Shown here in pieces: positions 1,743-29,664 of a stretch of DNA of 54,783 bases. Source of the stretch: Nemertoderma westbladi (taxonomy: Eukaryota; Animalia; Xenacoelomorpha); NCBI GenBank assembly GCA_032718475.1, contig JAUCBJ010000136.1:1-54783 (forward strand), written 5' to 3'. Under the pieces are notes generated by a model. That model was given only the letters and a program-made list of their open reading frames with translations, did no database searches and had not been told where the DNA came from. The position numbers and the translations under genes are program-made. The stretch's first letter is position 1, and each line of letters starts with the position of its first letter.

Positions 1743-1745
1743 TCA

Positions 1746-5409: not shown

Positions 5410-8400
5410 CCCCGTCAACTAAATAAGTCATTGAGGGCTATAGCGCCTAGGGCACCATTGATGGCAAAGGCTTGATACGCATCTGCAATAGAGATGATAC
5501 ACGCCCCGCCCTGTCTATACTGGATGCTCCTCTACCAGTGTTCGGTAACCTAACCCAGGAGGCACACTTGGTTCAAGGTGTAACAAAGGGACCCTTACAG
5601 TCGGCAGCAGGGCTGTAGGCCATGGATAGGCGGAAGGTATTCAACCAACGGCTAGACATGCTGAAAAGGTCGGCGGCGGAAAGTAATAAACCAACGGCGA
5701 CCTACTGCGAAGACGCTTGTAGGAGTTGCGACCACAAGCGGTTTACTCTCGCAACTGAAAGATATGAGTATGAGAACCCTCCAGGAGAAATACCGGCTCG
5801 GTCGTCGCTCGGGTCAACGAGGACCGCGTCCCTCAGTGGTACACCAGGCTGGGGTCGATAAATTGGCTACTGGAACAGAAGACCGAGAAGAAAGAAGAAC
5901 CAACCTGTTGAAATGTAAAAAGACACTAAAAATTGCTACAATGAACGCACGCACACTGAAAGTACATAGCAAACAGGGTGACATGGTCGCTCTGGCAATG
6001 GAATATAACATCGACATCATCTGCATCCAAGAACATCGGATTTGTCATGAAGACACTGCCATGAAGTACAATGACATTGGAAATGGATGGACGTTAGTAA
6101 CAAGCTCAGCAGTAAGAAACTCGGCCAATGCATCAATTGGTGGAGTAGGAATTCTGCTAAGCCCATTTGTACTTAAGACACTAAACAACATCGAATCTAT
6201 AAATTCCAGGGTTATGATCGCAACATTTGATGGGAATCCCAAGGCAACAGTTATATGTTGCTACAGTCCAACCAATGCTTCAGAGCAAGAACAAGCAGTC
6301 AAGTTTTATGAAGAACTGACTGGTCTTATAAAGGACATTCCGAAACACAATGTTAAAGTCATTGCTGGTGACCTGAATGCGCAAATTGGCCCAGAAAACA
6401 TCACCTATAACACCAGTTCTAACATAAATGGGTACTTACTTTTAGACCTAATGGAAGAATGTGAATTGATACCAACAGACAACACATTCGAAAAGAGTAA
6501 GGGGAAGCTATGGACCTTTCAATACCCTAATGGAACCAAAGCACAACTGGAGTACATCCTTATAAACAAAAAGTGGAGAAACAGCATGATCAACTGCGAG
6601 GCATACAGCTCGTTCGACCTAATTGGTTCGGACCACAGAATTGTGACTGCAGAGATCAGACTCAGTTTGAGAGCCAGCAAACCCAGGACAAGCAAGCAAA
6701 TCAAATATGACTGGTTGAAACTCAGAACTGACAATGCTGTAAAGGATGCTTACACGGTAGAAGTTCAAAACCACTTTGAAGTACTTCAGTCAATGGATGA
6801 AGACCAATCCACGGATTCAATATACGGGAATATAATAACAGCCCACAAGGAATCAGCTAAGAGGCATATCCCCCAGAAATCCAAACGAAAACAGTATGTG
6901 CCATGGCAAAACTCTGAGGTTTCTTGTCAGAGAGAAGATCTTAAGATAGCCTACAAAGTTAAAACCGAACAACTAACAACATATAACATTAACAAGGTTG
7001 AGAAAGCTAAGGACGATCTTAAATTGGCCTACAACATCAGCCAGGAAAAGTACATACTGGATAAAATTGAAGCAATTACAACTGCTCACATACAGCAACA
7101 ATCAAGACTTACCTGGCAATCTGTAAATTATGTATCTGGTCGGAAAAGTTGTGTAAAGGGACGCCTAAAAGCCGATAGCCCTGAAGAACATGTTGGGAAG
7201 TGGAAAAATCACTTCATCAACTTGCTTGGGCAGCCACCAAACATCGAGGTCAGCCCTACAAGGAAAATATATGATATATGACAAGACACTACCTATAGAA
7301 ACAGGGGACTTCACACCTGCCAAACTCCAAAGAAGCATTAAAAGCATGTCCAATAATAAAGCGAGTGGATTAGATGAAATCCCAGCGGAGTTATGGAAAA
7401 CCGGAGTGCTAAACAGACCATTATTAAATGTTTGCAACCGGATGCTGGAAGGAGAAAAGCCACCACCAATTTGGACTAAAGGTCAACTAAAGCCTCTCCC
7501 CAAGAAAGGAGACCTCGGCATACCAAAAAACTATCGTGGGATCTGTCTGCTTGTGGTAGCTGCCAAAATATACAATAAAATGATTCTATATAGGATAGGC
7601 CTTACATAGAGAAACTACTGCGTAAGAGCCAAAACGGATTTCGACCAAGTAGATCAACAATAGCTCAGATACTTGCACTACGGAGACTGATTGAAGGAAT
7701 TAAGTCAAAGAATCTCCCCGCAGTCATGACTTTTGTGGACTTCAAGAAGGCATTCGACTCCATCCATAGAGGTAAAATGTTTGAAATCCTAAGAGCTTAT
7801 GGAATACCAGAAGTAATTGTTGCTGGTATTGGATTGTTATAATGTGATACAGAAGCGCAGGTACTCTCACCAGATGGTGAAACTGTGTTTTTCTCAATCC
7901 TGGCTGGAGTACTGCAAGGTGACACATTAGCACCATTACTATTTGTAATTGTGCTGGATTACGCAATGAGGACGGCCACAAAGGGTGAAGATCTGGGATT
8001 CACACTTCAAGAACGCAGAAGTAGTAGATATCCGGCAACTACAGTCACAGACACCGACTTTGCGGATGCCATCGCCCTGCTCTCTAATACGCTAGCAGAT
8101 GCACAGCTCCTACTAAATAAAGTGGAGAGGGCTGCTAAGGAGGTTGGATTGCATATAAATGCTACCAAGGCCGAATTCATGACCTTTAATGTTGATGGAA
8201 ACTTGACAACCATTGATAATAATCAACTAAGGAAGGGGTGGGGAAGGGGTCGACGACTTCCAGTACCTTGGATCATGGATAGAGATTAGCAAAAAGGACA
8301 TAGAAGTTAGGAAAGCAAAGGCTTGGGCAGCTCTATCAATAATGGATACCATCTGGAAATCAGATCTCTCCAGGCACCTGAAGACTAAATTCTTTCAAGC

Positions 8401-8684
8401 CACAGTGGAAAGTGTATTTTTATACGGGTGTGAGACCTGGACACTGACTAAATCCCTTGAACAACGAATTGATGGTTGCTACACAAGACTACTAAGGGCA
8501 GCCCTAAACATCAGCTGGAGACAGCACATGACAAATGCCGAGTTTATGGTACAATACCACCTGTATCAACCACTCTCCGTGAACGCAGGTTAAGATTCAG
8601 TGGGCACTGCTGGCGAAGAAAAGGTCATACCAGATCTACTTCTCTGGCAACCAACTCATGGAAAGCGTAGTTGTGGACGACCGG
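5410..8684 (+). pseudogene. Decayed RTE-clade LINE (endonuclease-RT in several frameshifted pieces: 5764-7281, ~7270-7609, ~7600-7840, 7885-8260, 8342-8680)
   Basis: APE motifs TMNARTL, IQEHR, YSPT, GDLNA, SDH. RT motifs NYRGI, FVDFKKAFDS, GVLQGDTLAP, YGCETWTL and C-terminal GRP. Catalytic FADD reads FADA; several frameshifts and stops. Confidence 0.9.
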
Positions 8685-9826: not shown

Positions 9827-10507
9827 ATGGCTGACTTTAATTCAGGTCCATATAATTTAAACTTTCAAATGGGTACAAGTATGATAATTTCAGGGCCATC
9901 TGGTTCCGGAAAGTCAACCTTTGTAAGCAATTTAATTAAACACAAGAATGGTTGTTTCAACGAAGCCCCCTTGCGAGTATTGTATTGTTACGGGAGCAAT
10001 CCCCCGACTATTCCCGGTATTACTCACCTTTACAAAGGCTTGCCCGAAAATATAGATAGTTTAGTGAATAGTCGAGATTTATTAATTATAGATGATTTGT
10101 TAACAGAAACTGAGTCCAGTACAGCATTAACTGTATTGTTTACTAAGGTAGCTCATCATTCCAATATATTTATTTGTTTTATAACGCAAAACATGTTTTA
10201 CGGCGGGAAGCATAACCGTACAAGATCAATTAATAGCCATACTTTAGTATTAATGAAAAATCTGAGAGACAGTCTATCGGTTTTAAATTTCGCGAAGCAG
10301 ATGTTACCAGGACAGACCAAATTTTTAGTTGATTCCTATCAAGATGCGACAATTCAACCATTTTCACATTTCTTAATTGATTTACGACAGGAAACACCCG
10401 AACATTTAAGATTTAGATCGGATATATTTCGTAATCATAATTGTTACATTAAAAATTACATTGACTATAAACGTAGCGAAAATAATAATAATAATAATGA
10501 TAAATAA
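9827..10507 (+). CDS. Polinton genome-packaging ATPase (A32/FtsK-like)
   Basis: Walker A GPSGSGKS, Walker B LLIIDD, then HH.NI..FITQN, RTRSINS, 'LIDL...PEHLRFRS' as in Polinton ATPases. Confidence 0.92.
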   Translation: MADFNSGPYNLNFQMGTSMIISGPSGSGKSTFVSNLIKHKNGCFNEAPLRVLYCYGSNPPTIPGITHLYKGLPENIDSLVNSRDLLIIDDLLTETESSTALTVLFTKVAHHSNIFICFITQNMFYGGKHNRTRSINSHTLVLMKNLRDSLSVLNFAKQMLPGQTKFLVDSYQDATIQPFSHFLIDLRQETPEHLRFRSDIFRNHNCYIKNYIDYKRSENNNNNNDK

Positions 10508-10544: not shown

Positions 10545-10928
10545 ATGAATAGACTTGTGCAGAAATATCGTAACGAACTGGAATTTCTACGCAGCGCTAC
10601 CCCTCAACAAAGAACTTATTTTATTAACCATACCGCGAGTAACGAATTAATACGGCTCATTGTAAATACTGTATTAAATGTTCTAAAAGGTAACGTACAA
10701 TTAACCCCTCATTCATTTAGAAATATTCGCCGCTATAAGAAGGTATTGAAATCACTCAACCGTAAAACAAAAAATATATCAAGTTACAGAAAAAAGTTAA
10801 GCAATCAATCTGGAGGCATACTACCGTTTCTAATACCCTTACTTGGCATTGGTGCGAAACTCGCCGCGAGTGCCGGTGCCGCTGCCGCTGGAGCGGCTAT
10901 TGCGAAAAAAATTAACCGTGGACGGTAA
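10545..10928 (+). CDS. Basic virion protein with adenovirus pX/Mu-like C-terminus
   Basis: Basic N-terminal part, then QSGG-ILPFLIPLLG plus Ala-rich tail, resembling adenoviral pX 'MRGGILPLLIPLIAAA'. Confidence 0.65.
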   Translation: MNRLVQKYRNELEFLRSATPQQRTYFINHTASNELIRLIVNTVLNVLKGNVQLTPHSFRNIRRYKKVLKSLNRKTKNISSYRKKLSNQSGGILPFLIPLLGIGAKLAASAGAAAAGAAIAKKINRGR

Positions 10929-11152: not shown

Positions 11153-12241
11153 ATGCCTCGCAAGATGAAACCGATTTTAAGCCGAAGCTTAGACAAAAAA
11201 CTGTTAAGAATTTATTTAGATCCATCATCCCCCGCGGGTTTTGCAAGTGTTGCAAAATTAGCAAAAGCTGCAAACATCAAAGCAGCCCAAGCCCAGAAAT
11301 GGTTGAGCGGGCAAAAGACATACACCCTTCACGCTCCACGTAGACATCATTATCCAACATCTAAAATATTTACGGGAGGCATAAAAGATATATATATGAT
11401 AGATTTGGTGGATATGCAGCAATATAAGTCGCAAAATAATAATTATAACTATATATTAACATGTATTGATGCCTTTAGCAGGCTTGCTTTTGGCTATGGT
11501 ATGAAAACAAAAAAGGGTGTTGAAATTATTAGTATATTGCAAAAAATATTCCAGAAAGGAAAACCAAACAGAATCGCCACGGATCAAGGTTCTGAGCTTC
11601 TAAATAAATCTGTAAGGAAATATTTAGATACGTTAGGTATACAGTATTACGTAATGTATTCTGTGAATAAGGCGGCTATTGTCGAGAGATTCAATAGAAC
11701 ATTAAAAACAAAGATGTTCAAAATTTTTACACAACAAGGAAATAATGTTTGGATTAAAATTTTACCTAAGCTTATCTCGGCTTATAATAGGTCATATCAT
11801 AGGACAATAAAAATGACACCTATTGAAGTTAATAAATTTAATGAAACTGAATTAATGAATAGATTATATGGGAAATATAGACAGATTAATCATAAGAAAA
11901 TAAAATTTAAAGTTGGAGATACAGTACGATTATCTATCGCTCGTACTGCTTTAGCTAAAGGCTATCGTGAACAATGGACACGTGAATTATTTATTATTCA
12001 TCGTGTCAGGTTGGATAGAGTACCTGCTGTAATGTTCGATATTAAGGACAGCGCTGGAGCTATAATAAAGGGCTCATTTTATTCTCACGAACTCCAAAAG
12101 GTCCACCCGAATAGTAATATTTATCTAGCAATTGATAAAAATATTGGCAAACTTAAAGAACGTGTTCGCAATGGGAAGAAAGAATATTTAGTCCGATTCA
12201 TCGGATCCAAGAAACAGTCGTGGGTACAGCATATTCAATAA
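11153..12241 (+). CDS. Polinton retroviral-like (rve) DDE integrase with C-terminal chromodomain-like remnant
   Basis: YTLH, IDLVDM, CIDAFSR, TDQGSE, KAAIVERFNRTLK, YN..YHRTIKMTP, FKVGD.VR, KGY...WT.E, YLVRF.G....SWV. Confidence 0.95.
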   Translation: MPRKMKPILSRSLDKKLLRIYLDPSSPAGFASVAKLAKAANIKAAQAQKWLSGQKTYTLHAPRRHHYPTSKIFTGGIKDIYMIDLVDMQQYKSQNNNYNYILTCIDAFSRLAFGYGMKTKKGVEIISILQKIFQKGKPNRIATDQGSELLNKSVRKYLDTLGIQYYVMYSVNKAAIVERFNRTLKTKMFKIFTQQGNNVWIKILPKLISAYNRSYHRTIKMTPIEVNKFNETELMNRLYGKYRQINHKKIKFKVGDTVRLSIARTALAKGYREQWTRELFIIHRVRLDRVPAVMFDIKDSAGAIIKGSFYSHELQKVHPNSNIYLAIDKNIGKLKERVRNGKKEYLVRFIGSKKQSWVQHIQ

Positions 12242-12493: not shown

Positions 12494-13366
12494 ATGGCCA
12501 CAGATACATATATCACTCTACTTTCAGATAGCTCATTAAACACTTACCCCAATAATAATCCTAGCGAGTTTACTGTTGATTTAGCCGAAGAATTATATAT
12601 TGGTCCAAACGCTAAAATTGGGCTTGCCGAGCTTCAATACCAAGCAACATACAGTAATATTACGCTGCAAACTCAAATCTCACTGTCAATCGGGGTAGAT
12701 GCAAAAGATGCCAAATTATATAGTTTATTTCCTGGTATGCATAACTCTATTCAAGTCATTATTGATAATATAAATAAACTGTTTAATTCTGAAGCGAAAT
12801 ATAGAGATTTCGAATTCATTTTTAATACAAATAATTCTAGAATTAAATTTAAATTTCCTAAAAAGTTGAAAAAAATACAATTAAGTCTACGTGGTGATTT
12901 AATACAAATTCTAGGCTTAAAACCGTTATTGGATCGGAATCATCCGGATATTCCGAATTGGGATATATACAGTACCACTACAGTAGATGAATTAAGCAAT
13001 ATAGAACAGCCGATATTAATTTTAAATTATAGCGGGCCAAAAATTTCGGAAATTGGCATTTTAGATTTTCCAGCTCCCACGAATATAACACGTAATAAAG
13101 ACACTATCTTTATATACACAGATATTATTAAGAACTCATTTGTTGGTGACGCTTTAGCTCCGCTCTTAAGAACCTGCCCTTTAACGCAATTAAATCGAAA
13201 ATATATTAATCATGAATACGAGAGCATTTGCTATTACCCGTTGTTGAATAAAAAACTAAAAACAATCTTAATTACTTTACGTGACGGGCAAGGCCAATTA
13301 ATTAACTTCAGTGGAGGTCGCACTGTTATAACACTTAAGTTAATACAGGGTGGTAGTGATGGATGA
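12494..13366 (+). CDS. Polinton minor capsid (penton-like) protein, copy 1
   Basis: N-terminal YITLLSDSSLNTYPNN.PSEF.V.L...IGLAE; C-terminal FIYTDII...VGD..APLLR...YYPL...I.I.LRD.QG..I.F..G...ITL. Confidence 0.85.
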   Translation: MATDTYITLLSDSSLNTYPNNNPSEFTVDLAEELYIGPNAKIGLAELQYQATYSNITLQTQISLSIGVDAKDAKLYSLFPGMHNSIQVIIDNINKLFNSEAKYRDFEFIFNTNNSRIKFKFPKKLKKIQLSLRGDLIQILGLKPLLDRNHPDIPNWDIYSTTTVDELSNIEQPILILNYSGPKISEIGILDFPAPTNITRNKDTIFIYTDIIKNSFVGDALAPLLRTCPLTQLNRKYINHEYESICYYPLLNKKLKTILITLRDGQGQLINFSGGRTVITLKLIQGGSDG

Positions 13367-14203
13367 ATTCTACGTAAGACTACCAAGTAACTCCTGTCCA
13401 ATTGATTTTCCCCGCAATAGCGCTAGTAATTATCAGATCAATTTCCATGGCGCCTTACCTATAAACCCAAACGAAAACTGGGTGGTAGGTATAAAAAGTA
13501 TATTTTACTTAGCAACGTTGCCGTCCATGTATAACAATGTAGAGAATGTTATTTTATTAAAAAAAGGAAAAAAAAAATTTGAGGATACACTTCCATCCGG
13601 TTTGTTCTACAGTATCAATGACATTATAGATTATTTGAACACGGGGGCGTTGAAAGATAAATTAAAATAGTTGAAAATACTCAGCAAAATAGGTTGCAAT
13701 TTATTTTAGGGAAAACTGTGCAAGAGTTATTTATAGGTCAACAATTAGCCTATTATTTTGGAATTACTGAAAATAATCTCGGTGCGAATTTAAATCCAAA
13801 TTTTAAAATTATTTTGAAGACGAAAAATAATATAAAGGGTTATTTAATAAAGGTTATCGGAAATGGAGAAAAAGCTTACCAGATGGTATTTTTATGCCCT
13901 CAACCACCCAATTCTATTCCAGAACCTAAGTCGAACATGTACGTGACTACTAATATAATTGAAAATCAATATATTAATGACTTTGGTTTAGCTTTACTTC
14001 GTCGTGTTGCGATACCTGATGACGTGAAATATGGTAGCGTAATTAATATAGAATTTGTCAAGGATACAATTCATTATATCCCTGTAAAAAAATCATATAA
14101 GATAACATACATTCATATTGAAATAACAGACAAAGAAGGAAAAGATTTGAATTTTGAATACGGGACAACATCTATTACATTACACTTTAAACGTATAAAT
14201 TAA
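13359..14203 (+). pseudogene. Polinton minor capsid paralog, copy 2, split by a one-base frameshift near 13660
   Basis: Same termini as copy 1 (FYVRLPSNS...FPRN; MYVTTNII...LLR...YIPV...I.I.ITD..G....F..G....TLHF). Track ORFs 13350-13670 and 13694-14203 join if one A is added in GATAAATTAAAATAG. Confidence 0.8.
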
Positions 14204-14204
14204 A

Positions 14205-14780
14205 ATGGATTCTGATTTATTTCAAAGATACAGTAAACCTCAATATGGTGGTTCAGACTCTAATCTTGCTGTTTTTAAAGGTGGTAGAAGTACCAGAGGT
14301 TCGACGCAAGTTCCTGTTTTTCGAGGTGGTTCATATATTGACCCTTACAGTCAACAAATTGGCACATTTGGTCCAAACTTAAAACAACGTCGTTTTCAGC
14401 GTTATCGTAGAGGTATGCGGGCAAATCAACACGGAGAAGGTATATTTACAGACGCTTTATCGACATTGAAAAAATTTGGTAAGCCATTAGCTAAAAAAGT
14501 TTTACAGAAAGCTTTACCATTTACCACAAAATTTATGAGACAATACGTAATACCAAAAGGTAAGCGGGTCTTACATCAGCAGGCTAATACGGTTATTAAT
14601 AAAGCATTAAATAAAATGAAACCGTCAACAAGGTCAGTTGTAGAAAAAGTTTATAGAGATTTAAAGCGACCCGCTAGACCAATGTCTATGAACATACATC
14701 ATCGATGTAGTAAAAAGAGAAATATAAAAGGCAAATTGAAACACTGCGAAAAAAGTATTTTTTATAATGTCAATTATTAA
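14205..14780 (+). CDS. Basic Gly-rich Polinton core/virion protein (pVII/pVI-like)
   Basis: Repeated xGG motifs (QYGG, FKGG, FRGG), QHGEG followed by amphipathic helix IFTDALSTLKKFGKPLAK, Arg/Lys-rich. Located just before the major capsid gene. Confidence 0.6.
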   Translation: MDSDLFQRYSKPQYGGSDSNLAVFKGGRSTRGSTQVPVFRGGSYIDPYSQQIGTFGPNLKQRRFQRYRRGMRANQHGEGIFTDALSTLKKFGKPLAKKVLQKALPFTTKFMRQYVIPKGKRVLHQQANTVINKALNKMKPSTRSVVEKVYRDLKRPARPMSMNIHHRCSKKRNIKGKLKHCEKSIFYNVNY

Positions 14781-16026
14781 GGAATTAGATTTATTTTCTA
14801 CACAGCCAATACAGACTGAATTTAAAGCAAAGCATTATGAAACAATTTACCCCGTATCTAATCTCAGAAGTGAATCTAGGGAGGTCACATTCCTTGTACC
14901 GAGATCCAATGAATTCTATACGAAACTACAAGATGCGTTATTAATTACAAAATGTACTGTACGATGGGATAGACGACTTGAAAACTCCCATATATATATG
15001 CTGAATTACCCCGCTGAAACTATGTGGAGTGATATTAAAATAGACCTTAATGAGAAGCAGGTTGAAAATAGCAATAACCATTATTTCTACAAGTCGTACT
15101 TATCCAATTTATTATTTACAACTTACGAGGATAAAAATGGGCTACTGGGTGCGGGTGGCTTTCATCAACCTTTATCTGAGCACGGAAATGAAATTGATCC
15201 CGGCGCGCATCCTATTGACGATGCCTTTAGTAAACAAATGCAATTTGTAAGTGGATTGACGATTGATTTTGATACTGAAACTAAAATAATACAACCCGGG
15301 TATGATTTAAGAATGCATTTTAGAAAAGTATCAAATTCGTTTATTTTTAAAATCACTCCAAACGCAAACGCGGTGACAAATCTTCGACTAGAATTAGATG
15401 AAATAAAGATTCTAATCCCTAGAATGGAGGTTAATCCTGTAATAGAAAGCAGTCACCTAAAAGGTTTAGAGAGTTACGATATTGAATATCAATTTCAAAA
15501 AAAGGAGGTGACAACATTTACTATTCCCGCTCAAACCACAAATTACACCCAAACAAACATATTTGATGGTAAAAAACCCAAATTAGTTATTATTGGCTTC
15601 ATAACAAATAACGCTTATTCGGGAGAATTAATTAGCAATCCCTTGAAATTTGAACATTTTAACCTTAGACGCGCGGAACTGATTGTAGACGGTCTTCCAG
15701 TAGGTGGTGTAATATACGAGCCTAATTTTACAGATGGAACATATATTTTTGAGTATACTCAATTAATGAAGAACATTAATACATATATTAACGGTTATGG
15801 AGGTAATAATATAGACCATGAAACCTACTTAGGTAATTGCCCCATCCTATCCTGGGACTTAACCGCCGACGGCTATGTTAGAGATCCGCAACCGTCGATA
15901 TATACTAATGGCCAATTAAAATTAAGATTTGCTGAACCGTTGGTTGAAACCATAAATGTAATCGTTTTTAATATTTATGATCAATCATTAAGTTTAAATA
16001 GCAGGAAAGAAATACATATCGATTAA
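14767..16026 (+). CDS. Polinton major capsid protein (double jelly-roll)
   Basis: 419 aa. ELDLFS..PIQT start, Y.YKSY...LL, P..VIIGF..N.AY.G....NP..F.HFNL, DLTAD, L.LRFAEPL...INVIV. Confidence 0.88.
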   Translation: MSIIKELDLFSTQPIQTEFKAKHYETIYPVSNLRSESREVTFLVPRSNEFYTKLQDALLITKCTVRWDRRLENSHIYMLNYPAETMWSDIKIDLNEKQVENSNNHYFYKSYLSNLLFTTYEDKNGLLGAGGFHQPLSEHGNEIDPGAHPIDDAFSKQMQFVSGLTIDFDTETKIIQPGYDLRMHFRKVSNSFIFKITPNANAVTNLRLELDEIKILIPRMEVNPVIESSHLKGLESYDIEYQFQKKEVTTFTIPAQTTNYTQTNIFDGKKPKLVIIGFITNNAYSGELISNPLKFEHFNLRRAELIVDGLPVGGVIYEPNFTDGTYIFEYTQLMKNINTYINGYGGNNIDHETYLGNCPILSWDLTADGYVRDPQPSIYTNGQLKLRFAEPLVETINVIVFNIYDQSLSLNSRKEIHID

Positions 16027-16028
16027 GT

Positions 16029-16481
16029 ATGTTATCTACAGAGGACCTTGATATGTTTCCAGTGGGTGGTCACTATTTGGGTGCGTTTCCAGCTAACAAA
16101 TTACCTAAATTAGATAATAATAAGCGAAGAGACTATGGCTTAATAGTAAATACCGATAAAGAGCATCTGCCTGGGATTCATTGGATCGCGATATATATAC
16201 GAGATAATGAGGCTGAATTATTTGACTCGTTTGGACCAAAATATCCAAACAGATGCATCGAAAAATGGCTTGAGAAAAATTCCGCAAGGTGGCGTACTAC
16301 TCGCAAACAATTTCAAGACCCTAGGAGGACCACATGCGGTCTGTACTGTCTGTATTATTTGGTAAATCGTATTCACACAATCTATCCAATGAGAGCGTTT
16401 ACAAATAATGTGGAAATAAATGAAATAATATTATATAAATGGCTTGTTAATTATTATAAAATAAACCAACAAGCGTTGTAA
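16029..16481 (+). CDS. Adenain-like cysteine (maturation) protease
   Basis: IVNTD....PGIHWIA, LFDSFG, Q......CGLYC (His-Asp-Gln-Cys catalytic set). Confidence 0.92.
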   Translation: MLSTEDLDMFPVGGHYLGAFPANKLPKLDNNKRRDYGLIVNTDKEHLPGIHWIAIYIRDNEAELFDSFGPKYPNRCIEKWLEKNSARWRTTRKQFQDPRRTTCGLYCLYYLVNRIHTIYPMRAFTNNVEINEIILYKWLVNYYKINQQAL

Positions 16482-16516: not shown

Positions 16517-17116
16517 ATGGATAATATTATTTTTGTTGATTTTCAATATTATAAGATAGACAATAAAGAGTATCCGGTAGTATTTAAAGAATTTGCTATA
16601 TTTGATTCTAATTACACCAAAACTAATATAAAGACGTTTTTAATTAAAGGCCCGTCTAATATTAAGTTATCAGCTTTAGATGCAGCCCACGTAAACAATT
16701 TACGGGATATGACTTCTCACTTGCCCTGGGACTACGGGGACATTTCTCAAGATGACTTTAAAAAATATATAAAGAGACATTTAAAATATAAAAAAAACAT
16801 TCATGTATTTGGGTTGCTGAAGCAGGCAATATTAGTTTCCCAACTCGATGTTCTCGCGCCAAATTCGGTGGAGAGATTGGGAATATATAAGCAATATCAC
16901 GAATATTTAACCCCCTGTCGCTTTCACGATCAATTTATTCCACTGGAAAATAAATGTGCGTTCCACTTAAACACAAAGGATAACTGTCTGCGGTATTGCT
17001 CAGCAAAACGCGTTGGGGGGTATGAGATGCTACATTTTTTCATGAGAAAGCGTTTAACTGCGACTGATGATGATGATAAACAGAAAGAAATAACTGTGGT
17101 GGAAGATGTACTGTAG
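16517..17116 (+). CDS. DnaQ/DEDD-fold-like protein with Glu-Cys-His-Cys pattern (Maelstrom-like)
   Basis: FVDFQ...FKEFAIF...F.IK.P...TSHLPWDYG...C.FH...C. The ORF itself is well supported; the fold call is by eye. Confidence 0.5.
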   Translation: MDNIIFVDFQYYKIDNKEYPVVFKEFAIFDSNYTKTNIKTFLIKGPSNIKLSALDAAHVNNLRDMTSHLPWDYGDISQDDFKKYIKRHLKYKKNIHVFGLLKQAILVSQLDVLAPNSVERLGIYKQYHEYLTPCRFHDQFIPLENKCAFHLNTKDNCLRYCSAKRVGGYEMLHFFMRKRLTATDDDDKQKEITVVEDVL

Positions 17117-17485
17117 GTTTACTCTAAGCATGTAATGTGATGGGATATAATATAATTTTATTTTGGTGATGATCTTGATGTTAATATACAAATATAATAA
17201 AATATAATTTTTTTACAACAAGTTCTCTAAAAAGAGTCAATTGCGGTAGGTTAACCATGCACATTTAACAATATGACGTAGACGTAACATGTACAGTAAG
17301 TATTCTCGATATCATTCTAATATAGATATACTGGTATTGCGAAACATCCTATACATCGCAAACTAATAACACATACAGTAGTTGACTAGTAATATTAGTC
17401 AGAAATGCAACATAAACTGTATAGGATGTAGTGTTAACCTGTTGGTACCAGTACTGATAAATTCAATAATTTATTATAAGCCTAA

Positions 17486-18290
17486 CCACAACTGTCATCC
17501 GCTTTATCAGTACTGGTAGTGTTTTACTCTTCCAACACTGTAGTCACAGTCTACTGGTATCAGTACAGCAGTAATCTGAAGCAATAGCATACTGCTGTCA
17601 TGATCTGGATTACACGCAGGGGTCTCTCATATAGGGATTAGATCACCTATCCAAACAATACAGTACTGCAGTACTGTCGTTGTTCTTGATGTAACAACAT
17701 AATCAGATAGAGCATACTGATTTCCTTTGATTAGCATTGTACCGCAGTACTAGTACTACAGTATTAATGTAACAGTACCCGCAGTAACAAACTAGGCCAA
17801 TGTATACAATATCGTGAGCCAGTTACAATCAGATGTGTACGCAGTCAGCCACACTGCGGGGGATGTGGTCAACCTCGCAGCTCCTATCCACAACTGTCAT
17901 CCATTTTATCAGTACAGCAGTAATCTGATGTAATAGCATTTGTTTTTTTTCACCTATAAGGATACTGCTGTCTACCCGAACCTTGATTAGCATACTGCTG
18001 TCATAACCTAGAAGGGACGCGTGGCTCTCACATATAGGGATTAGATCACCTACCCAAACAATACAGTACTGCAGTACTGTCGCTGTTCTTGATGTAACAG
18101 CATTGTCAGATAGAGCATGCTGATTTCTTTTGATTAGCATTGTACTGCAGTACGGTACCGGTACCACAGTATTAATGTAACAGTACCCGCAGTAACAAAC
18201 TGAGTCAATGTATACAATATCGTGAGCCAGTTACAATCGGATGTGTGCGCAGTCAGCCACACTGCTGGGAAACGGTCCACCTCGCAGCCG
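17486..18290 (+). repeat. ~400-bp diverged tandem duplication between the two Polinton gene blocks
   Basis: CCACAACTGTCATCC at 17486 and 17888; shared GGGATTAGATCACCTA and GTAACAGTACCCGCAGTAACAAACT blocks at ~400-410 bp offset. Confidence 0.85.
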
Positions 18291-18456
18291 TCTAGCCACC
18301 CTCGCAGTCAGCCTCGCGGCAGGCAGTCAGCCTCGCAGTCAGCCTCGCGGCATGCAGTCAGCCTCGCAGCCAGCCTCGCGGCACGCAGTCAACCTCGCGG
18401 CACGCAGTCAGCCTCGCGGCACGCAGCCAGCCACGCAGCTAGGCACACAGTCAGCC
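18290..18456 (+). repeat. Short GC-rich tandem repeat (GCAGTCAGCCTCGCGGCAC-like)
   Basis: About 8-10 variable units of 13-19 bp. Confidence 0.8.
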
Positions 18457-18548
18457 CGTGAGAGTCATGCTTATTCAAACGAGGTTAGTTTTCCCTAACT
18501 ACCGATTGATTGATTGATTGAAAAATAATAATGTTTAATTTTCACCTT

Positions 18549-19094
18549 CTAATCACCAACACCTAAAGTCACAACACCAAACATTAATAAATAATTAACA
18601 AGTTTACTAAATATAGGGTAATAAATGTGAAATTTGCTAGGTGAACACATTAAAGTACATTTACCGGTATGAAAGCAGCAAATGACTACGGTATTATTTA
18701 TTCTTATTTTGCAATTATTAAAAATTTCAGGTTCATATATAACTTAAAGTTGCACATTATCAAAGATAACATAAAACCCGGTATTGTTTATCAATAACCT
18801 ATAGACTACAGACTTAATACTAAAAATATAAGTACATAAATTAACAGATTTTAAAATCAAATTAATACTAGTTTTATCAAATATATGCTTTTTTACTTTT
18901 TGGAAATTATACTTACTACCTAATAATGTAATACGACCATTTTTAAATATTAATAATGTGGCACCAAATATCTTATATATAAACTGATTTGGTTTGAGTA
19001 TGTGTTTACCAGATAATTGATTTTTTAATTCTTTCAAATTAATCGCTGACACTTGCTGGCAACTTACATTCTTATTGACTATCTGATAGTTCAT
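18549..19094 (-). pseudogene. TATA-binding-protein (TBP)-like gene of the Polinton, 181 codons with one in-frame TAA (18744-18746)
   Basis: Repeat 1: IVN..VSC....AINL ... TLLIFKNGRITLLGSK. Reading past the stop in the same frame gives VIYEPEIFNNCKIRINNTVVICCFHTGKCTLM...YYPIF to TAG at 18549, matching TBP repeat 2 (YEPELF...IFVSGK...IYPIL). Confidence 0.75.
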
Positions 19095-22000
19095 TGTTTG
19101 GTTCCCGATAAATTGGTATATTGTTTTTTTTCATGGGTTTTTCGACCTTTGTTTGATAGTGACCCCAGGGAAGCGAATGATTTTTATTAACCCAATAAAG
19201 TTTATCATCAAATGCGCTGAGAGCAAACTTATCTCGTGCTATAGTATACACTTTGTGTAATTTACTCTGAAATTGATGTGTTTCTTTTGAAATTTCTTCG
19301 TTATCGTAATATGCCCTCAAATAATCTTTGTGACAAATATTTTTATCCACGACAGCTCTTGTTATTCCTTTCGCCCGTCGTATATTTGTTTCATTGAATT
19401 CCAAAATTGAATATAACTTTGGTCTTAAAAATACCGCTTGTTTAATTTCACATGAGGCTAGTTCGTCTTTACAGTAATAGAGCCTGGATTTATTTTTATC
19501 GCTGTAGAGAGGGTGATCCTTGGGGTAATTGGATGTATCTAAAATATTATTTTTAATTAAGGCTTTTAAGAAATTACTCTGTGATGTATTATAGTAACAA
19601 CCTATTAAAGAGTCCGTGTCTGATGCTACAATTTCAATTCGGCAGTTTAATTCTTTCTCAATAGGTAGCAATTTATCGTAATACAGCTGATACATATCCA
19701 ATTTAGCCAAGTCCAAGACAGTACTACCTACATAGACTGGTTTATCGAGAGTTACAGAGTCTTTCACTAATAAATGTCCCGATAAGGAATCGTTATAAAT
19801 CATGAAATTTTCATGATTTATTCGTTTGACTAATTGGTCACATTTTTCTTTACTATTTGCGATACGAAAGTTGCATCGATCCCGTATATTCTCTATAGTT
19901 TTACCAAATAAAGAATTGTTCAGCAATTTCGCGACAGCTGTTTCAATATAACTTTTTGCTAGTCGCCTTTGATTAATATTAAAATCTATATAGGGTTTAA
20001 ATACAAAGTCTTGATGGAAAGAATATAATTTATGGAGCTTAGTAACAATTAAACCTTGTTTTATATAAAATTTTAACAGTTTTAAATTTACATGATAGAA
20101 TTCTTTATCGAATTGTGTCAACATAAGTTTCGGTGCACACATCTTATACTTGCTATTAGTGCCTCTTTGTTTACAAACATTGTTAAATTGTTCCCTCATA
20201 TAAGGTGAAAGCATTGTCTCATTTATACTTAAATGTTCTGGAGCTAAGGGTAGTTCTAATGTACGATCGTGAATATCTTTGGGATATTTCAAATCGCAAA
20301 TTAAGAAAAACCCAATATCACCTTCAGTATCAAGATTTGTTAAATATTTTATCAGTTCTTCTGGAGCAGCATTCTCTAAATATGTAACATTGACTTGTTC
20401 AAAACCTGAAACAGGTAGCTTTTTACTTAAATTTCCCGAATACAAGGAATTAAAATCTATATTGAAAATATGACACTCTTCCTTGCTTGGATCATAATTA
20501 TCAGTATCTGGTATATTTGATTCTATGTAATGCTTTCGACAGAATGAAACCCCTCCTCTAATAGATGCTTCAAAATCTCTATATGTTTGGTAATCTTTTA
20601 TTAATGTTAACTTACATTTATTGTATTTCAGGGCGCAATCATAAGTGAAAGCTGCGATACTGCAATAATAAACTACTTCTAATTCGTAGTTTTGTCTACA
20701 CACTCTCCTAAAGTTCTCAAATATATCAGCGAGGAGACAAACATCGAGTTTTAAGTATGCTAAAAGATAATCCTTGAGATTCACACAGTCAAACTGACTC
20801 CATGATGCGTTGGCAAAACTATATTCCTCGGGTGTACAGGTATTTTGTGTTAATTTACTATAAAATTTGTCTATTGATGGTAATTTCAAATCATTGAATT
20901 TATTTAAATCTGTCAGATACTCGTAGGGAAATATACCTTTTCGTTTAATTGTTGCATTATTTAAATTTGGATAAAAATATTTCATTTGCTGTTCAGTAAT
21001 TGGTAGAACTGATGTTATATCCTCGCTGTCTATATCCTTTGTTGAACAATCAACTAAAGTACTTAGGGAAAAGGATAAAAATTGATATGTGTCTAAGACA
21101 CGTAGCTCGATCTTAGTTTTTTCATCTTTCACTGGTATATGCATGCTTAGTGAAATATACCTTTCAGAATTTTTAGGGATCACCTTTATATCCCAATCGG
21201 AATATCGGTTGTTGGTAAAACCAACTTGCAAAAGAAAATGCAAATCGTAGAGATTGCAGTTGTGTGCAGCAAGTATATACATGTGTCGTTTCAACGATAA
21301 AGAGCGGTTACATGCGTTACAAGCGGCCGCTATATAGTTACCAGTAATATGTGAGTGATGTTTGTTTTTCTCAGACTTATCCTTAAATAAAACATTGCAA
21401 TAAAAGCAAGTTTTAGCTTTCCAAAAACTTAACTTATCTACATCATTAAGTATCATTCTCTCTCTCGTGTGGGTTTCTGACCACTTATATAATTGGGTGA
21501 TGTCATTATATACAGAGTCTAAAAAGTCTTGAATATAGTTGTTGTCGATTGTTTTTGTAAAGGTCTTCAAATAAAATTTTGGTGGATTGATTAATTCGGC
21601 ACTAGGAACAATTAAATAACTTACAGCGCATGGAATATGATTCTGAATAAATTTACTGTTGGTGGCTGGCTCCAAAATAGATTCTATGTCAAAATATATT
21701 ACAAACAATGCTGGTAATGTTCTGTCTAAATTTCTAAAGCTAATGTGAGTTCTTTTTTCAGACGGTAGCTTCTCAACTTGACTTTTTCCTCGATAACAAG
21801 CAAGACGGTGACGTTCTAGAACATCATTGGTGTAGAAAGGCGCCAAACACCGTTCACAATATTTCCTACCACGAGTATGAAGAGCTCTTGTATTCATCAA
21901 ACGATTCAAGTTAGTTATGCAAACATAATGTGATTGTTTACTCGTATTCTTATGTTTTACAAGTAATATATTCAATAACTCTTTATCTGGAGTGATTTTA

Positions 22001-23098
22001 CTAAATGGTGCCTGTCTTAATATAGATACTCAATTGTTGTCGTAGAGTAATAAATTAATTATATATGCTGAATTCTGTTTTTCAAAAAGTTTAATTGCAA
22101 GCGGCCATTCTGTTGGATAATCTTTGTTGCCGTTGTCAAAAATGAAATGACTCATATAATTTTTGTACTGTGAAGTACGGTTTTTGTTTATCTTCACTTT
22201 GCTACTAAATTTTGTAGCTATAATTGCCCATTTAAAACAATCATTATCAGCCGTTTGTATATTTATAACACATTGTTTATACGCTAGAGCCTTAGGTAAC
22301 TCCATGTAACCGTGTGTGTCCCTTATATTCCAGTGACCTACACTTGGATTCAGCTACTTTAATTTCAACCCTTAATAAAGATTTAACACGCCACCCTGAG
22401 CCACGAGTGTTAAACATGGCTATTTTTTGCATTAATTTTTCTAATACATACTCAAACCATGTGTCAAAACTTTCATGTGAATCTACGGTATTAACTGCAC
22501 CACCTGAAGAACTAAAATAGAAAGCTTCTTCTTGATCACCCTCTGAAAAATGTGATCGATACATGAGTATATTCACACCTAGCCAGGGTCTAAGTACATT
22601 CATTTCGCTAAGTTTTCCTAATAATAAAGTTTGGATGTGAGGTAGAATTTTAATTAATGATGAATGAATATCAGGAAAATCTTCATCATTCGGAAGATTG
22701 TAAACATAGATTTCTAAACGGTTATCGTGTGCGGCCCGTTCAATGTTAAAAATTGATGAACCTTGACCAGATTTCAGTCTTTTTCTAGATACGATAGTAT
22801 TGTTTTGGTTCCGTTGTGGTGGTGGTCTAACATGATAATAACGTTGGTGACAGTCGTGACGTAAGTAATTCTCATATAAATACTCTTTATTACAAGTAGG
22901 GCATGTTTTTTCATACACGCAAAACTTCATTTCTTTACATCCCGTAGTTGATTCATGTCGTTTACATATTTCTTCACGTGAACATTTCACTCGACAATGA
23001 AAACAATTGTATTCTTGAAAATGAGATTTCACGTGTGTTAAATAATTTCGTTTAGAAATTTGAAGAGGACAAAATGGACATTTCAATTGTTTATCCAT
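19072..23098 (-). pseudogene. Protein-primed family B DNA polymerase (N-terminal Zn fingers, OTU-like segment, EndoVII-like insert), split by a frameshift (~22315) and an in-frame TGA (22030-22032)
   Basis: Exo motifs FDIES, HN...YD, YLKLDV; pol motifs DFNSLY, KLLNNSLFGK, SDTDS, KDE, RPKLY, KGI; N-terminal GSGW and DCFKWAI...HYV. ORFs 22030-22305 and 19072-21975 share a frame; 22292-23098 is shifted at a (CA)n run. Confidence 0.93.
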
Positions 23099-23720: not shown

Positions 23721-24695
23721 TTATTTTCTTTGTAGGTATAGAATCATTGTTGGGAATGGAAGATGTTTGAGATGTAGATCTGCGCTTTCTATCACTCGAT
23801 GTCTCTTCGATGTATGCTTTGGATTAAATGTGGATGAAACTACTTCTGGAAATGACTTATTAACCTTAAACTTCCAAGTTGGTTGATATAGAATCGCGAA
23901 ACCGTCTGCTATATCAGTTGATGAAACCTTTAACATCATATCGTGGAGAAACTCTATATGTGGTATGTCTTTATCGTAATGTAACTGTAAATATTTGCTT
24001 TCCTTGTCTGTAATAATTACTTTTTTTTCTTGTACATTTATTTTTACTTTAAGTCGGTCAGATAAAGCTTTATCGTCCGTATCTAGCTCTGAAAAGACAC
24101 CTTCGTTACTAATTTCATAATTCCATTCATACCACAATGAATTTACTTCCGATGCTGTTAAGTTAAACCCATTATAATACCTAAGACCAATAGCGTCAGA
24201 ATATCTAGCTGAAATCTCCCATAGTCCCATATAAGTCGTTCCTTTATATTTGCTTACAAAACCAACAAAAGATGGGTTGGTTAAATTAACAACAGAACAC
24301 TGATTTATTATTTCGAGTGGTGGTGATAACAATTCTAATATTTCTGTCTTACTCTGAAGCAATAAATTAATGAGTGATTTGTTTAGAATTTGACATTTGC
24401 CTTGCTTCTGAATATATACGTTTTCAGTAATAACACAGGTGGAAATATTTAACTTTCCTCTTGTAAATTCTATATTAGGATAAATATTACCTCTTGAAAC
24501 TGGTGATTCCTTTTGTCGGTTGATTAATATTTCTAAGACGTCTAGAAGGTAGAGTGTATCCTGGTAAGAGAAGCATGTTGTTACATTGCTATCGCTTGAG
24601 AGTAATATAAAGTACTTGCCATAAACAATACTACAGGTATATTTATTACATGTAAATTTCCAAGTATTGCTTGAAGTTTTTTTAAATAAATCCAT
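23721..24695 (-). CDS. Polinton accessory protein with a PC4/Sub1-like ssDNA-binding segment
   Basis: 324-aa ORF. Central FVSKYKGTTYMGLWE...NGFNLTASEVNSL resembles PC4 'VSVRDFKGKVLIDIRE...KGISLNPEQWSQL'. Confidence 0.5.
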   Translation of the reverse strand: MDLFKKTSSNTWKFTCNKYTCSIVYGKYFILLSSDSNVTTCFSYQDTLYLLDVLEILINRQKESPVSRGNIYPNIEFTRGKLNISTCVITENVYIQKQGKCQILNKSLINLLLQSKTEILELLSPPLEIINQCSVVNLTNPSFVGFVSKYKGTTYMGLWEISARYSDAIGLRYYNGFNLTASEVNSLWYEWNYEISNEGVFSELDTDDKALSDRLKVKINVQEKKVIITDKESKYLQLHYDKDIPHIEFLHDMMLKVSSTDIADGFAILYQPTWKFKVNKSFPEVVSSTFNPKHTSKRHRVIESADLHLKHLPFPTMILYLQRK

Positions 24696-25199: not shown

Positions 25200-25632
25200 G
25201 AATATTTTGTTATCTGAAAAATTGCAAAATTAAATTTAGTTACTAGTGAAAAATAGCGATTTGAAAAATAGTAGACGTTACCTGTAGACACTCCTAGCAT
25301 CTGTAAAATAAAGGTTGGTAAAAAATTGCGATTTGAAAAATAATAGAAGTTACCTGATGCTAAGTGTAGACACCCGAACACCTGTAAAATAAAGGTTGGT
25401 GATTGGATGCAGTACTAGCGTTGGGTGACTAATAACGCCTCTAGCGGAATAAGCGGGAACTTGAGAAGTTACCATGGTTACGGATGAAATGCTGACATCT
25501 GATTGGTTGAAATAATAACGACCACTGCAAAAGGTTGAAATGGTGGCTTCTGATTGGATGCAGTACTAGAAATGGATGGTAATGATGGACTACGGGTGAC
25601 CTTGATGCCCAGGACATGTAATATATACTACT
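25200..25632. repeat. Putative Polinton right terminal region with short direct repeats
   Basis: Duplicated GCGATTTGAAAAATA, CTGTAAAATAAAGGTTGGT and GATTGGATGCAGTACTAG; ends in ACTACT. Confidence 0.55.
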
Positions 25633-25639
25633 AATATCA

Positions 25640-26045
25640 CTAAGCTTGGTGAATGCAGCGATCCTCCCGTCGAACTGTGTCAGAAAGATGTCGGCGAGTA
25701 TGGGACCCAATGGAGACCCCATAGCGACACCATCTTTCTGACAGACGTAGTTACCACGGCGATCCAGGAATACAACATCCTTGGTAGCTAACAGCATAAG
25801 ACCAATAAATTGGTCCTTGCTGATTGGCTGGCTATCAGAGGATGCCGCTCATACAGTAGAGCCGCAGCGAGCTGCACCGCCTCCCTCAGTGGGACGTTAT
25901 GAATACTCTCACAACGTCCAGGGAGTAGAGGCGGTCCGTGGGTTCTTCTACCTCTAGTTGGGCGAGACGATCGGCAGACCCAGAGCTGTTTGTAGATATC
26001 TTACCCTCGGGCAGCACATCCAACATATCTCTGAGATTGGTTGGT
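25640..26045 (-). pseudogene. Penelope-like element reverse transcriptase fragment
   Basis: Minus-strand translation (with frameshifts) gives LYSLDV...NVPLREAV...LLATKDVVF...Y.CQKDGVAMGSPLGPILADIF, then stops before the YVDD motif at the Polinton end. Confidence 0.8.
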
Positions 26046-26132
26046 ATTTCAACTCAGTTTAAAATATAACTTCTCCTCATCTGACATACAGTTTATAAAG
26101 TTAATGCAGTTGCAGTTGCACTCATGGGAGGC

Positions 26133-26968
26133 CGGTAAATTGACCAAATTTCTAAGTGGTTTTCTCTAGAAACCGGTAAATTGACCAAATTTCTAAGTGG
26201 TTTTCTCTAGAAACCGGTAAATTGACCAAATTTCTAAGTGGTTTTCTCTAGGAACCGGTAAATTGACCAAATTTCTAAGTGGTTTTCTCTAGAAACCGGT
26301 AAATTGACCAAATTTCAAAGTGGTTTTCTCTAGAAACCGGTAAATTGACCAAATTTCTAAGTGGTTTTCTCTAGAAACCGGTAAATTGACCAAATTTCTA
26401 AGTGGTTTTCTCTAGGAACCTGTAAATTGACCAAATTTCTAAGTGGTTTTCTCTAAAAACCGGTAAATTGACCAAATTTCAAAGTGGTTTTCTCTAGAAA
26501 CCGGTAAATTGACCAAATTTCTAAGTGGTTTTCTCTAGAAACTGGTAAATTGACCAAATTTCTAAGTGGTTTTCTCTAGAAACCGGTAAATTGACCAAAT
26601 TTCTAAGTGGTTTTCTCTAGAAACCGGTAAATTGACCAAATTTCTAAGTGGTTTTCTCTAGAAACCGGTAAATTGACCAAATTTCTAAGTGGTTTTCTCT
26701 AGGAACCGGTAAATTGACCAAATTTCAAAGTGGTTTTCTCTAGAAACCGGTAAATTGACCAAATTTCTAAGTGGTTTTCTCTAGAAACCGGTAAATTGAC
26801 CAAATTTCTAAGTGGTTTTCTCTAGGAACCGGTAAATTGACCAAATTTCTAAGTGGTTTTCTCTAGAAACCGGTAAATTGACCAAATTTCAAAGTGGTTT
26901 TCTCTAGAAACCGGTAAATTGACCAAATTTCTAAGTGGTTTTCTCTAGGAACCGGTAAATTGACCAAA
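26133..26968 (+). repeat. 41-bp tandem satellite, ~20 copies (AACCGGTAAATTGACCAAATTTCTAAGTGGTTTTCTCTAGA)
   Basis: Near-identical units at 41-bp spacing (e.g. 26171, 26212). Confidence 0.97.
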
Positions 26969-28233: not shown

Positions 28234-29664
28234 TTACCGCAACGGTGAGGAATTCCCTATCTGATTGTGTTGACTCGGCGTCAAGGAAACGCCGCCGATA
28301 TCTGCGTCCCGCGGCGGCAGTTTGACGTGCAACTGGATGCGAAGCAACGCGGCTCGCAACGTCAACGCCTTGCAACGTCGCTCGTAGTCGCGGCAGATCT
28401 CGAGCCCGCGTTCGAACGTAGCGGTACGCGCGTGCGTGTCCTTAGCGTAGACTATCTTATTGTGCGAGTCGATCCTCGCCGCGATCTTCCCGTCCAGTAT
28501 CAAGGCCATCACCTCGTCCTCCAACGATCCCACGTCCGTGTTGAACGCCGTCGCCATCGCGTTCATATCCGCGGACACGTAAGGACTGAAGTACTGACAC
28601 AACGCTTTCTTACGTATCTGGGAGTAAAGAACGCCAACGTGTTCCGCAAGGTATATGTCCACGAGGAACACGTTCCGAAGTCCATCGAGCAGCCGTAGAC
28701 ACTGGGCGTAGGACGAGGCGTAGAAGGCGGAGACCGCGTCCCGTAGTTGGGGCTCCAAGTCAAGGAACTGCTTGAAGGAGGCGCTACCGAGCACCAGTTT
28801 GTGTAGCTCCGAGCGCTCGAACGTGGCCAATGCGGTGAGTCCGCCGTAAACGGCGACGTTCCCAGGGGATAGAACCTCGGGGAAGTCGCAATAATCAAAG
28901 GAAGCAGAAACAAAGGATTTAGCCGCCGCTTTGTACTTCTTCAGACCTAATTCTGCGATCCCAGCGGCACATTTCAGTTTGGTTTCGGTAGCAGCGTCAG
29001 CTACTGCGTCCTTGCGTTCCCGGTCTGCGTAATCAGCTGTCGCCACAGCTTTGTTTACAAAACTGTTGACATGGGACCAGTTCCTCAGATAGATGCTCAC
29101 CTTGATGACATTCAGGTTCATACTGATGTGGTGTTTGGTTGAGGTGCAGTAGTCCCTGGAGCGACTGTAGCACTTGAGCGCGTTGCAGAGATCCCCGGTG
29201 TCGAGGTAGTGATCGCCAAGGTCGTCATGACCGCGCCGGATACTCTCCTTTATTGAGTTGGCCTTGTAGTTCTTGAGGTCGGTGTCGAGTTTCTCGAGTT
29301 TCAGCGAGGATTTCTTTGCGGTGTTTTCAATCCAAGTCGTGTCTAACTGCGGTGGTGACGGGAGGTTTGCGTCGGATGAGTGGGAATTGATGACGTCGGT
29401 GAGTTTGGCGTGGAGACTCTGGTAGTTCTCAACGTTGTAGGTTGTCTGAGAGTATATCAATGCGAGTCGGAGCGCATCCAGCTTAAGGGAGCCACAATGG
29501 TCGGCGAGATATTCCAGTCGCTTCACCTTCGCATGTCCAATGTACTGGGAGGCATAGCTGTCCAGGTCCAGGGTGGAAGAGTCAACAACCAACTCCTGGG
29601 GTAAACCGGCCACATTTTCATTGTCCTCCGGCAAATCAACCTGCATGGGTTCTATGCTAGCCAT
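28234..29664 (-). CDS. GPS1: COP9 signalosome subunit 1 (CSN1/GPS1), single exon
   Basis: EPMQVD start, LEKLDTDLKNYKANSIKESIRRGHDDLGDHYLD.GDL.NALKCYSR.RDYCT, YGGL.ALATF.R.EL, QYFSPYVSADM..MA.AFNT, LILDG.I.ARIDSHNKI (RPN7 + PCI domains). Uninterrupted 476 aa; AATAAA on the minus strand near 27940. Confidence 0.96.
   Translation of the reverse strand: MASIEPMQVDLPEDNENVAGLPQELVVDSSTLDLDSYASQYIGHAKVKRLEYLADHCGSLKLDALRLALIYSQTTYNVENYQSLHAKLTDVINSHSSDANLPSPPQLDTTWIENTAKKSSLKLEKLDTDLKNYKANSIKESIRRGHDDLGDHYLDTGDLCNALKCYSRSRDYCTSTKHHISMNLNVIKVSIYLRNWSHVNSFVNKAVATADYADRERKDAVADAATETKLKCAAGIAELGLKKYKAAAKSFVSASFDYCDFPEVLSPGNVAVYGGLTALATFERSELHKLVLGSASFKQFLDLEPQLRDAVSAFYASSYAQCLRLLDGLRNVFLVDIYLAEHVGVLYSQIRKKALCQYFSPYVSADMNAMATAFNTDVGSLEDEVMALILDGKIAARIDSHNKIVYAKDTHARTATFERGLEICRDYERRCKALTLRAALLRIQLHVKLPPRDADIGGVSLTPSQHNQIGNSSPLR

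Follow-up and report, generated by a model that had tools for sequence, protein, structure and literature searches.

Our analysis of a 54,783-nt stretch of Nemertoderma westbladi contig JAUCBJ010000136.1 (hereafter, the window) revealed that a Maverick/Polinton residing there encodes a TBP-like protein of its own, with two TBP repeats that are predicted to fold as the TBP saddle. The gene belongs to a multicopy element, is under purifying selection among the sister copies of that element, has homologues elsewhere in the same polymerase clade, and retains counterparts of both the intercalating Phe residues and the acidic YEPE motif of cellular TBPs. We consider a viral TBP in a small integrating element to be a real, lineage-level feature, for which a function as a promoter factor is proposed below.

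The TBP-like gene and its family match

The TBP-like gene, as read from the ORFs, lies on the minus strand (19094→18549) in a single frame of 181 codons plus a terminal stop at 18549-18551, and it is interrupted by an in-frame TAA at 18744-18746 (codon 117), such that the listed 116-aa ORF at 18744..19094 (-) represents only the first 116 codons. The original prediction, made from the sequence alone, held that this frame continues past the TAA to encode both TBP half-repeats and that it begins inside the 3' end of the polymerase gene, with an overlap of 23 nt. Both points were borne out. Specifically, the overlap spans 19072-19094, the motifs quoted in support of the two repeats (LLIFKNGRITLLG, YEPEIF, FHTGK, and YPI) all occur in the frame, and the joined product, with an X at the break, matches Pfam PF00352 in two stretches at E 5.6e-10 (39.4 bits, above the curated cut-off of 22.9 bits), with the N half alone matching at E 4.5e-5 and the C half alone at E 8.3e-4.

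Further, a TBP profile built without the window protein scored it at 55.4 bits, relative to a maximum of 10.4 bits among 2000 shuffles (1973 of which were reported) and 0.8 for the reversed sequence. Given the Pfam matches, and 55.4 bits set against the shuffled and reversed controls, the TBP match is not a product of chance. When the whole window was scanned with the TBP profile, the sole matches at E<0.8 were two segments of this same frame. NCBIfam returned two weak archaeal TBP matches, far under their cut-offs. Single-sequence searches with the protein gave one match among PDB sequences, which was unrelated (E 0.048), none among 73 candidates from a set of 5.8 billion sequences, and one, P0002, among 1.84 billion representatives.

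The carrier element

The gene sits in a Maverick/Polinton that spans roughly 9.6-25.4 kb of the window and in which both a pPolB and a retroviral-type integrase, the pair of genes by which such elements are recognised, were found. The element is arranged as a plus-strand block facing a minus-strand block. The plus-strand block opens with a packaging ATPase (9827..10507; a weak Pox_A32 match at E 1.1e-3, and a homologue at E 3.7e-42 in L049, a TBP-carrying relative considered below), followed by a small basic protein that is likely a core protein (10545..10928; weak Adeno_PX match, E 0.013) and the integrase (11153..12241; rve, E 1.7e-10). Next come a putative minor capsid protein (12494..13366; suggested by position and size, with no Pfam match), a likely second minor-capsid-like gene (13359..14203), a basic protein that is likely core/PZ-like (14205..14780), and a putative major capsid protein of 419 aa (14767..16026), proposed from its size and position and having homologues in five PolB loci. 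An adenovirus-type cysteine protease (16029..16481; Peptidase_C5, E 1.7e-5) and an accessory ORF of 199 aa, whose family was not recognised (16517..17116), complete the block. For this last ORF, the leads from Atlas were eukaryote clusters without a name (0.95-0.96) and Maelstrom (PF13017; 0.88), the latter with a recognition score under the reliable range, and a weak likeness to L049:11226-11690 was also seen (E 0.016); it is possibly an RNase H-like nuclease.

Between the convergent blocks lies a stretch with no recognised gene (17120..18548), which holds a direct duplication of ~300 bp (17585-17881 / 17988-18288, 88%). GC-rich short repeats occupy 18300-18438, and sister contigs show many skips around 17585-18288. 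The minus-strand block comprises a 324-aa ORF (23721..24695; no family match), likely an accessory gene of the element, then pPolB, and finally the TBP-like gene (18549..19094). The main ORF of the protein-primed PolB encodes 941 aa (19072..21897), its last 23 nt being those shared with the start of the TBP-like gene; an upstream pPolB piece in the same frame (22030..22305) ends prematurely at an in-frame stop (22030-22032), and a C2H2-bearing ORF in another frame (22292..23098), the end of which aligns with the PolB frame of a further relative (L044), is likely the N-terminal piece. The named pPolB relatives are from coral, molluscs, and arachnids. Neither terminal inverted repeats nor a target-site duplication was found in this copy, the ends of which may be lost, given a reverse-transcriptase fragment at its right flank. 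On our reading of the sequence, fragmented reverse-transcriptase elements flank the Maverick at 5764-8593 and 25441-25797, and they may have removed its ends.

The window holds several other features. An uninterrupted 476-aa ORF at 28234-29664 (-) bears RPN7, PCI, and CSN1_C domains and reads as an intronless gene for COP9 signalosome subunit 1 or a retrocopy of it. At 651-5264 (+) is an apparently intact element that we label LINE-like from its sequence, with an ORF1 of 363 aa and an ORF2 of 1172 aa; the latter contains an in-frame 30-bp tandem array of about 16 copies (3129-3602) that codes for Pro/Ala-rich repeats. Further tandem arrays occur at 48021-51785 (32 bp, about 117 copies), 26132-26968 (41 bp), and 30710-31471 (32 bp).

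The in-frame stop and selection among sister copies

Public DNA runs of the same organism yielded many variant contigs across the whole element, including the TBP-like gene, and hence allowed the stop to be viewed against sister copies. An open frame in such copies had been named in advance as a check on the prediction, and the stop proved to be absent from nearly all sister-contig depth. Specifically, a single variant row falls inside the stop codon, and stop-free contigs account for all summed depth in runs X1 (16 contigs), X4 (1 contig), and X5 (2 contigs; a run that is RNA by guess only) and for 81% of it in X3 (3 contigs), where contig depth in the DNA runs is not to be equated with copy number. 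At an 8% threshold, the sister-copy contigs have no indel row in the TBP-like gene.

The substitution pattern among copies, the other comparison that had been suggested, reveals purifying selection across both TBP repeats. Among the rows listed (40 of 66), third codon positions hold 25 of the 39 variant rows besides the stop row (p 8e-5), namely 14 of the 25 rows that precede the stop and 11 of the 14 that follow it (p 7e-4), although these p-values overstate independence, because the rows are linked and were classed singly. There are 21 synonymous and 18 non-synonymous variants among the same rows, for a pN/pS of about 0.21.

The TBP-like gene is not the only damaged gene of this copy: its pPolB has, besides the in-frame stop at 22030-22032, a probable frame break farther upstream, and its likely capsid gene at 13359-14203 is split over two frames. 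Because the sister contigs mostly lack the stop, the synonymous bias holds on both sides of it, and pPolB is broken too, the TAA at codon 117 is ordinary private decay of one inserted copy, and neither read-through nor splicing is needed to account for it. Splicing around the stop was considered and set aside as unnecessary in view of sister copies without the stop; the one 76-nt skip came from a single low-depth DNA contig. The 116-aa product of this particular copy would be missing most of the second repeat and would form no saddle. Our results support the gene as a TBP-fold gene of the element and not a stray host pseudogene.

Relatives and the pPolB clade

The original prediction hinged on TBP profile or structure matches and on homologues linked to Polinton genes, and both were found. 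An alignment of pPolB relatives led to 109 loci (29 viral and 80 metagenomic), two of which match the TBP profile, namely L049 (E 1e-78) and L030 (E 2e-19). The L049 TBP (L049:14633-15142) is intact, at 169 aa with no internal stop, and lies in a gap flanked on the one hand by pPolB, KilA-N, and PLA2-like genes and on the other by the ATPase and integrase. The L030 TBP lies 1 kb behind pPolB, is 3'-open at the contig end, and likewise has no internal stop. A quick pPolB tree (54 rows, midpoint-rooted) places the window element, L049, and L030 within one 13-row clade (SH-aLRT 100), the other loci of which are 2-8 kb fragments and the six protein rows of which come without context. Apart from six close loci, this tree takes in only loci of 8 kb or more, and those whose PolB match is short are not part of it. 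Beyond the clade, the TBP profile matched none of the 36 loci, which include three identical pairs and of which 32 reach 10 kb or more; this absence is not proof, because the loci are partial.

Of 411 candidates recovered by searching with the two element TBP proteins, 105 were of the PF00352 type, and most of these came from short metagenome contigs that give no gene context. The window protein is 20-25% identical to other family members. In a quick TBP-only tree (39 rows), it and the L030 protein sit on long, unplaced branches, and it does not group with the L049 TBP with support. No TBP-like locus was found in viral_contigs, whether with the window protein and alignments or with the window PolB alone, or in GTDB genomes or phage records.

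Three further observations concern the wider family. First, the longest contig is 14,748 for both P0222 (TBP-like) and P0004 (PolB), which suggests a possible fourth linked element. Second, P0158 and P0230 are TBP-like proteins in different clusters that both have a longest contig of 45,383 nt; they are perhaps two elements or a gene duplicated on one contig. Third, the pPolBs of the TBP clade (L049:4239-9086, L044:1379-6463, and L030:57-4175) carry several C2H2-type zinc fingers in extended N-termini; such fingers were identified by Pfam in L049 and by a weak match in the window ORF at 22292-23098, and they are a possible second DNA-binding module.

Predicted fold and residue anatomy

With an 87-row alignment, AF2 modelled the TBP-like protein at pLDDT 81 and pTM 0.67, as compared with pLDDT 35 from single-sequence input, and the two direct repeats make up a predicted TBP saddle. 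Foldseek against the PDB gave 44 matches at E<=1e-3, and, among the matches listed, all are TBP-containing entries; the best E was 1e-8, with a TM of about 0.6 and 17-20% identity over about 180 columns. The TBP identity proposed for the joined 181-aa product thus held against solved structures as it did against PF00352 (E 5.6e-10).

The description of the protein as a divergent TBP that keeps intercalating Phe residues also stood, but three had been counted where our alignments give four, with yeast F99, F116, F190, and F207 (numbering from Table 1 of PMC12529657) corresponding to F38, F50, F125, and F141. The assignment of F38 depends on the alignment, as it is paired Phe to Phe with P0002 in one and unpaired in the 87-row alignment, and the L049 subfamily is without the first intercalating Phe. 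F50 and F125 are kept in 87/87 family rows, and Phe at 50, 125, and 141 is kept in 86-87/87. Yeast N69 and L114 are retained as N7 and L48. T124, T215, and P191, in turn, have changed to L58, M149, and N126, N159 has probably changed to T88, and the counterparts of V71, V122, L205, and V213 have changed as well. Overall, the protein agrees with TBP at about 6 of the 16 listed DNA-contact positions and differs at about 10, such that the DNA specificity is likely not that for TATAAA. Sequence-specific binding of DNA is itself not assured, given the loss of the counterparts of P191, T124, T215, and probably N159.

The acidic loop Y120-E121-P122-E123 is also kept, with E121 and E123 each present in 86/87 family rows. 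These two residues are yeast 186 and 188 when counted back from F190, whereas PMC12529657 writes E184/E188. That paper describes the acidic loop glutamates as a TFIIB contact that is absent from KSHV ORF24, and, judging from the alignment, YEPE qualifies as the counterpart of this TFIIB-binding loop. With the Phe residues and YEPE kept and the contact residues changed, the protein appears to have conserved its DNA-kinking and TFIIB-facing parts while its base-reading positions were rewired. Finally, the first repeat is 5 residues shorter (P35 to F50) than in P0002 and P0224, and the same shortening in 73/87 family rows hints at a common origin; the TBP tree itself gives no resolution.

Upstream words as candidate promoters

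In L049, the word CATAAAC lies 15-130 nt before 7 of the 13 ORFs, against a null of 1.1 (post-hoc-corrected p 0.004; dinucleotide shuffle p 0.0005). Across the locus the word occurs 12 times, each time on the sense strand and never ahead of the TBP gene. We view CATAAAC as a candidate promoter word for the L049 TBP. L049:11153-18662 contains 11 copies of the word, again only on the sense strand, and in 9 cases an ORF starts 11-168 nt downstream.

For the window element, no shared upstream word passes, either among exact 5-8-mers (corrected p 0.38-0.93) or among gapped 7-8-mers in 130 and 220 nt (corrected p 0.48-0.97). Canonical TATA patterns gave no promoter word either: TATAA precedes 9 of its 12 genes, which is no more than the AT content gives (p 0.13), and ATAAAC precedes 4 of 12 at a marginal, uncorrected p of 0.045. 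Of 36 TBP-less loci that reach 10 kb, two passed the word test at p<=0.02, with the low-complexity AT words ATATATA and TTTAAAA; hence, a locus can pass without carrying a TBP. A promoter code is, at the level of sequence, supported in the relative L049 and not in the window element, where a word could be masked by decay, long leaders, or a less strict specificity.

Proposed function and its alternatives

We propose, with about even confidence, that the gene encodes a promoter factor of the element that binds an AT-rich box and recruits host TFIIB and Pol II. The product of an intact copy would likely bind AT-rich promoters of the element, where its saddle would kink the minor groove of an element-specific box and its YEPE loop would dock host TFIIB, thereby recruiting host RNA polymerase II. 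Such a factor could allow structural and packaging genes to be started without TFIID, in a way akin to the late TBP mimics of herpesviruses, except that it would act through TFIIB, and its placement directly behind pPolB suggests that it may be co-expressed with replication. More tentatively, and with the balance of our judgement against it, a minimal TBP that evolves fast may serve a deep Maverick clade as a transcription switch made of a single gene, with the TBP of each sub-lineage co-evolving with its own word. If these proposals are correct, host TFIIB and Pol II would be recruited without TFIID, an integrating virus of 15-25 kb would gain a private late-gene programme, and the clade would offer natural orthogonal TBP-promoter pairs (for example, with CATAAAC in L049).

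Several alternatives can be weighed against this promoter factor. It is unlikely, in our estimation, that the protein acts as a decoy or dominant negative, in which the TFIIB-facing loop titrates host TFIIB or TBP regulators and dampens host transcription or defence while the promoters of the element go unread. An almost invariant YEPE loop next to mostly changed base-reading residues, and a window element without a promoter word, would suit such a decoy, yet a pure protein decoy needs none of the Phe residues that are kept at 50, 125, and 141 in 86-87/87 rows, and the strand-specific upstream word of L049 speaks against it as well. Rather unlikely, too, is a low-specificity substitute that would supply TBP activity at ordinary TATA-like sites where host TBP is scarce (e.g., in the germline), with no private code. 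The count of TATAA before 9/12 element genes, which together with the four Phe counterparts invites this reading, does not rise above the AT-matched null (p 0.13), an identity of about 18% to cellular TBP is unexpected for a plain substitute, and the word in the relative L049 is not a TATA word.

A DNA-bending architectural factor, binding the AT-rich ends or the central non-coding region and aiding protein-primed replication or packaging rather than transcription, would leave the conserved TFIIB-side glutamates unexplained. We find this improbable, as the L049 word stands in front of genes and not at ends and this copy yielded no terminal inverted repeats, even though the gene overlaps the pPolB stop in the window, adjoins the packaging ATPase in L049, and has kept its Phe residues with the loss of base-specific ones. 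Last, a captured host TBP fragment carried as a dead hitchhiker, or a programmed read-through with a functional TAA, is largely refuted and very improbable, since, although the stop does stand in the sequence and about 19% of the summed X3 depth at the codon falls outside the listed variant, the synonymous bias extends to both sides of the stop, nearly all sister-copy depth is free of it, damage in this copy extends to pPolB and a likely capsid gene, and L049 and L030 have no internal stop.

Maverick virions were unobserved as of PMC8097293, according to the part of that work at hand, and the literature searched held no account of how Mavericks time or restrict capsid-gene expression. That such elements encode a conserved TBP of their own suggests that viral expression is run as a regulated programme, which could be put to the test with a single small protein and short pieces of promoter. 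Further, naturally re-specified TBP saddles, at about 18% identity with the Phe residues and TFIIB loop kept and the base-reading residues changed, lend themselves to the study of how TBP specificity evolves. The decayed copy described herein is of value as a highly divergent member that widens the family.

Comparison with known systems

The window element resembles canonical Mavericks/Polintons, with their eight core genes (PMC8097293, as far as its accessible text goes), in its pPolB, integrase, ATPase, protease, and putative capsid genes, in its convergent blocks, and in being intronless, but its gene order differs, its TBP lies outside the core set, and no terminal inverted repeats were found in it. 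The terms "TBP" and "TATA" are absent from the main text of PMC8097293, in the portion available, and from 10.64898/2026.10.13.758929 by term search. The original prediction left open whether such a gene had been reported, and we find it partly anticipated: a "TBP" label appears for a MELD virus, a midsize linear dsDNA element with an adintovirus-like PolB, in the Fig. 5 legend of Starrett et al. 2021 (PMC8502044). In the part of that paper at hand, the label comes without analysis or element name, and its identity with the window family cannot be told. This figure-legend label was the one mention found of a TBP gene in Maverick-type elements, and subscription papers, figures, and supplements may hold more. 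Mirusvirus-like elements without PolB also carry TBPs, according to the accessible text of PMC10675990. Divergent viral TBP folds are known from nucleocytoviruses as well, and those in BFVD (HaV01 A0A1C9C511, EsV-1-53, Terrestrivirus, and asfa-like B263R) match the window protein by Foldseek at E 2e-7 to 1e-4, but at 11-17% identity, which is no closer than cellular TBPs.

Many nucleocytoviruses with a TBP encode their own RNA polymerase and TFIIB. Neither an RNA polymerase nor a TFIIB gene was recognised among the ORFs of the window element.

Relative to the cellular TBP core (PF00352; 1ytb, 1cdw, 1mp9, and 2z8u), the window protein shares the two-repeat predicted saddle and counterparts of F99/F116/F190/F207, N69, L114, and YEPE, whereas it is only 17-20% identical, has a shorter first repeat and no N-terminal extension, and is encoded by a mobile element. 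From the canonical minor-groove set of N69, N159, T124, T215, and P191, it has kept only N69.

A further parallel is KSHV ORF24 and its TATT box, which, in PMC12529657, combine a virus-encoded TBP-like domain, four required Phe residues, a variant box, and the hijacking of host Pol II. There, ORF24 is described as a protein of 752 aa with Pol II- and ORF34-binding domains that does not have the TFIIB glutamates and acts as part of a complex of six proteins. The window protein, in contrast, consists of the core alone, at about 170-180 aa, and has kept the glutamates, with no partner genes recognised. The late TBP mimic of beta- and gammaherpesviruses may serve, by analogy, as a working model for the window gene.
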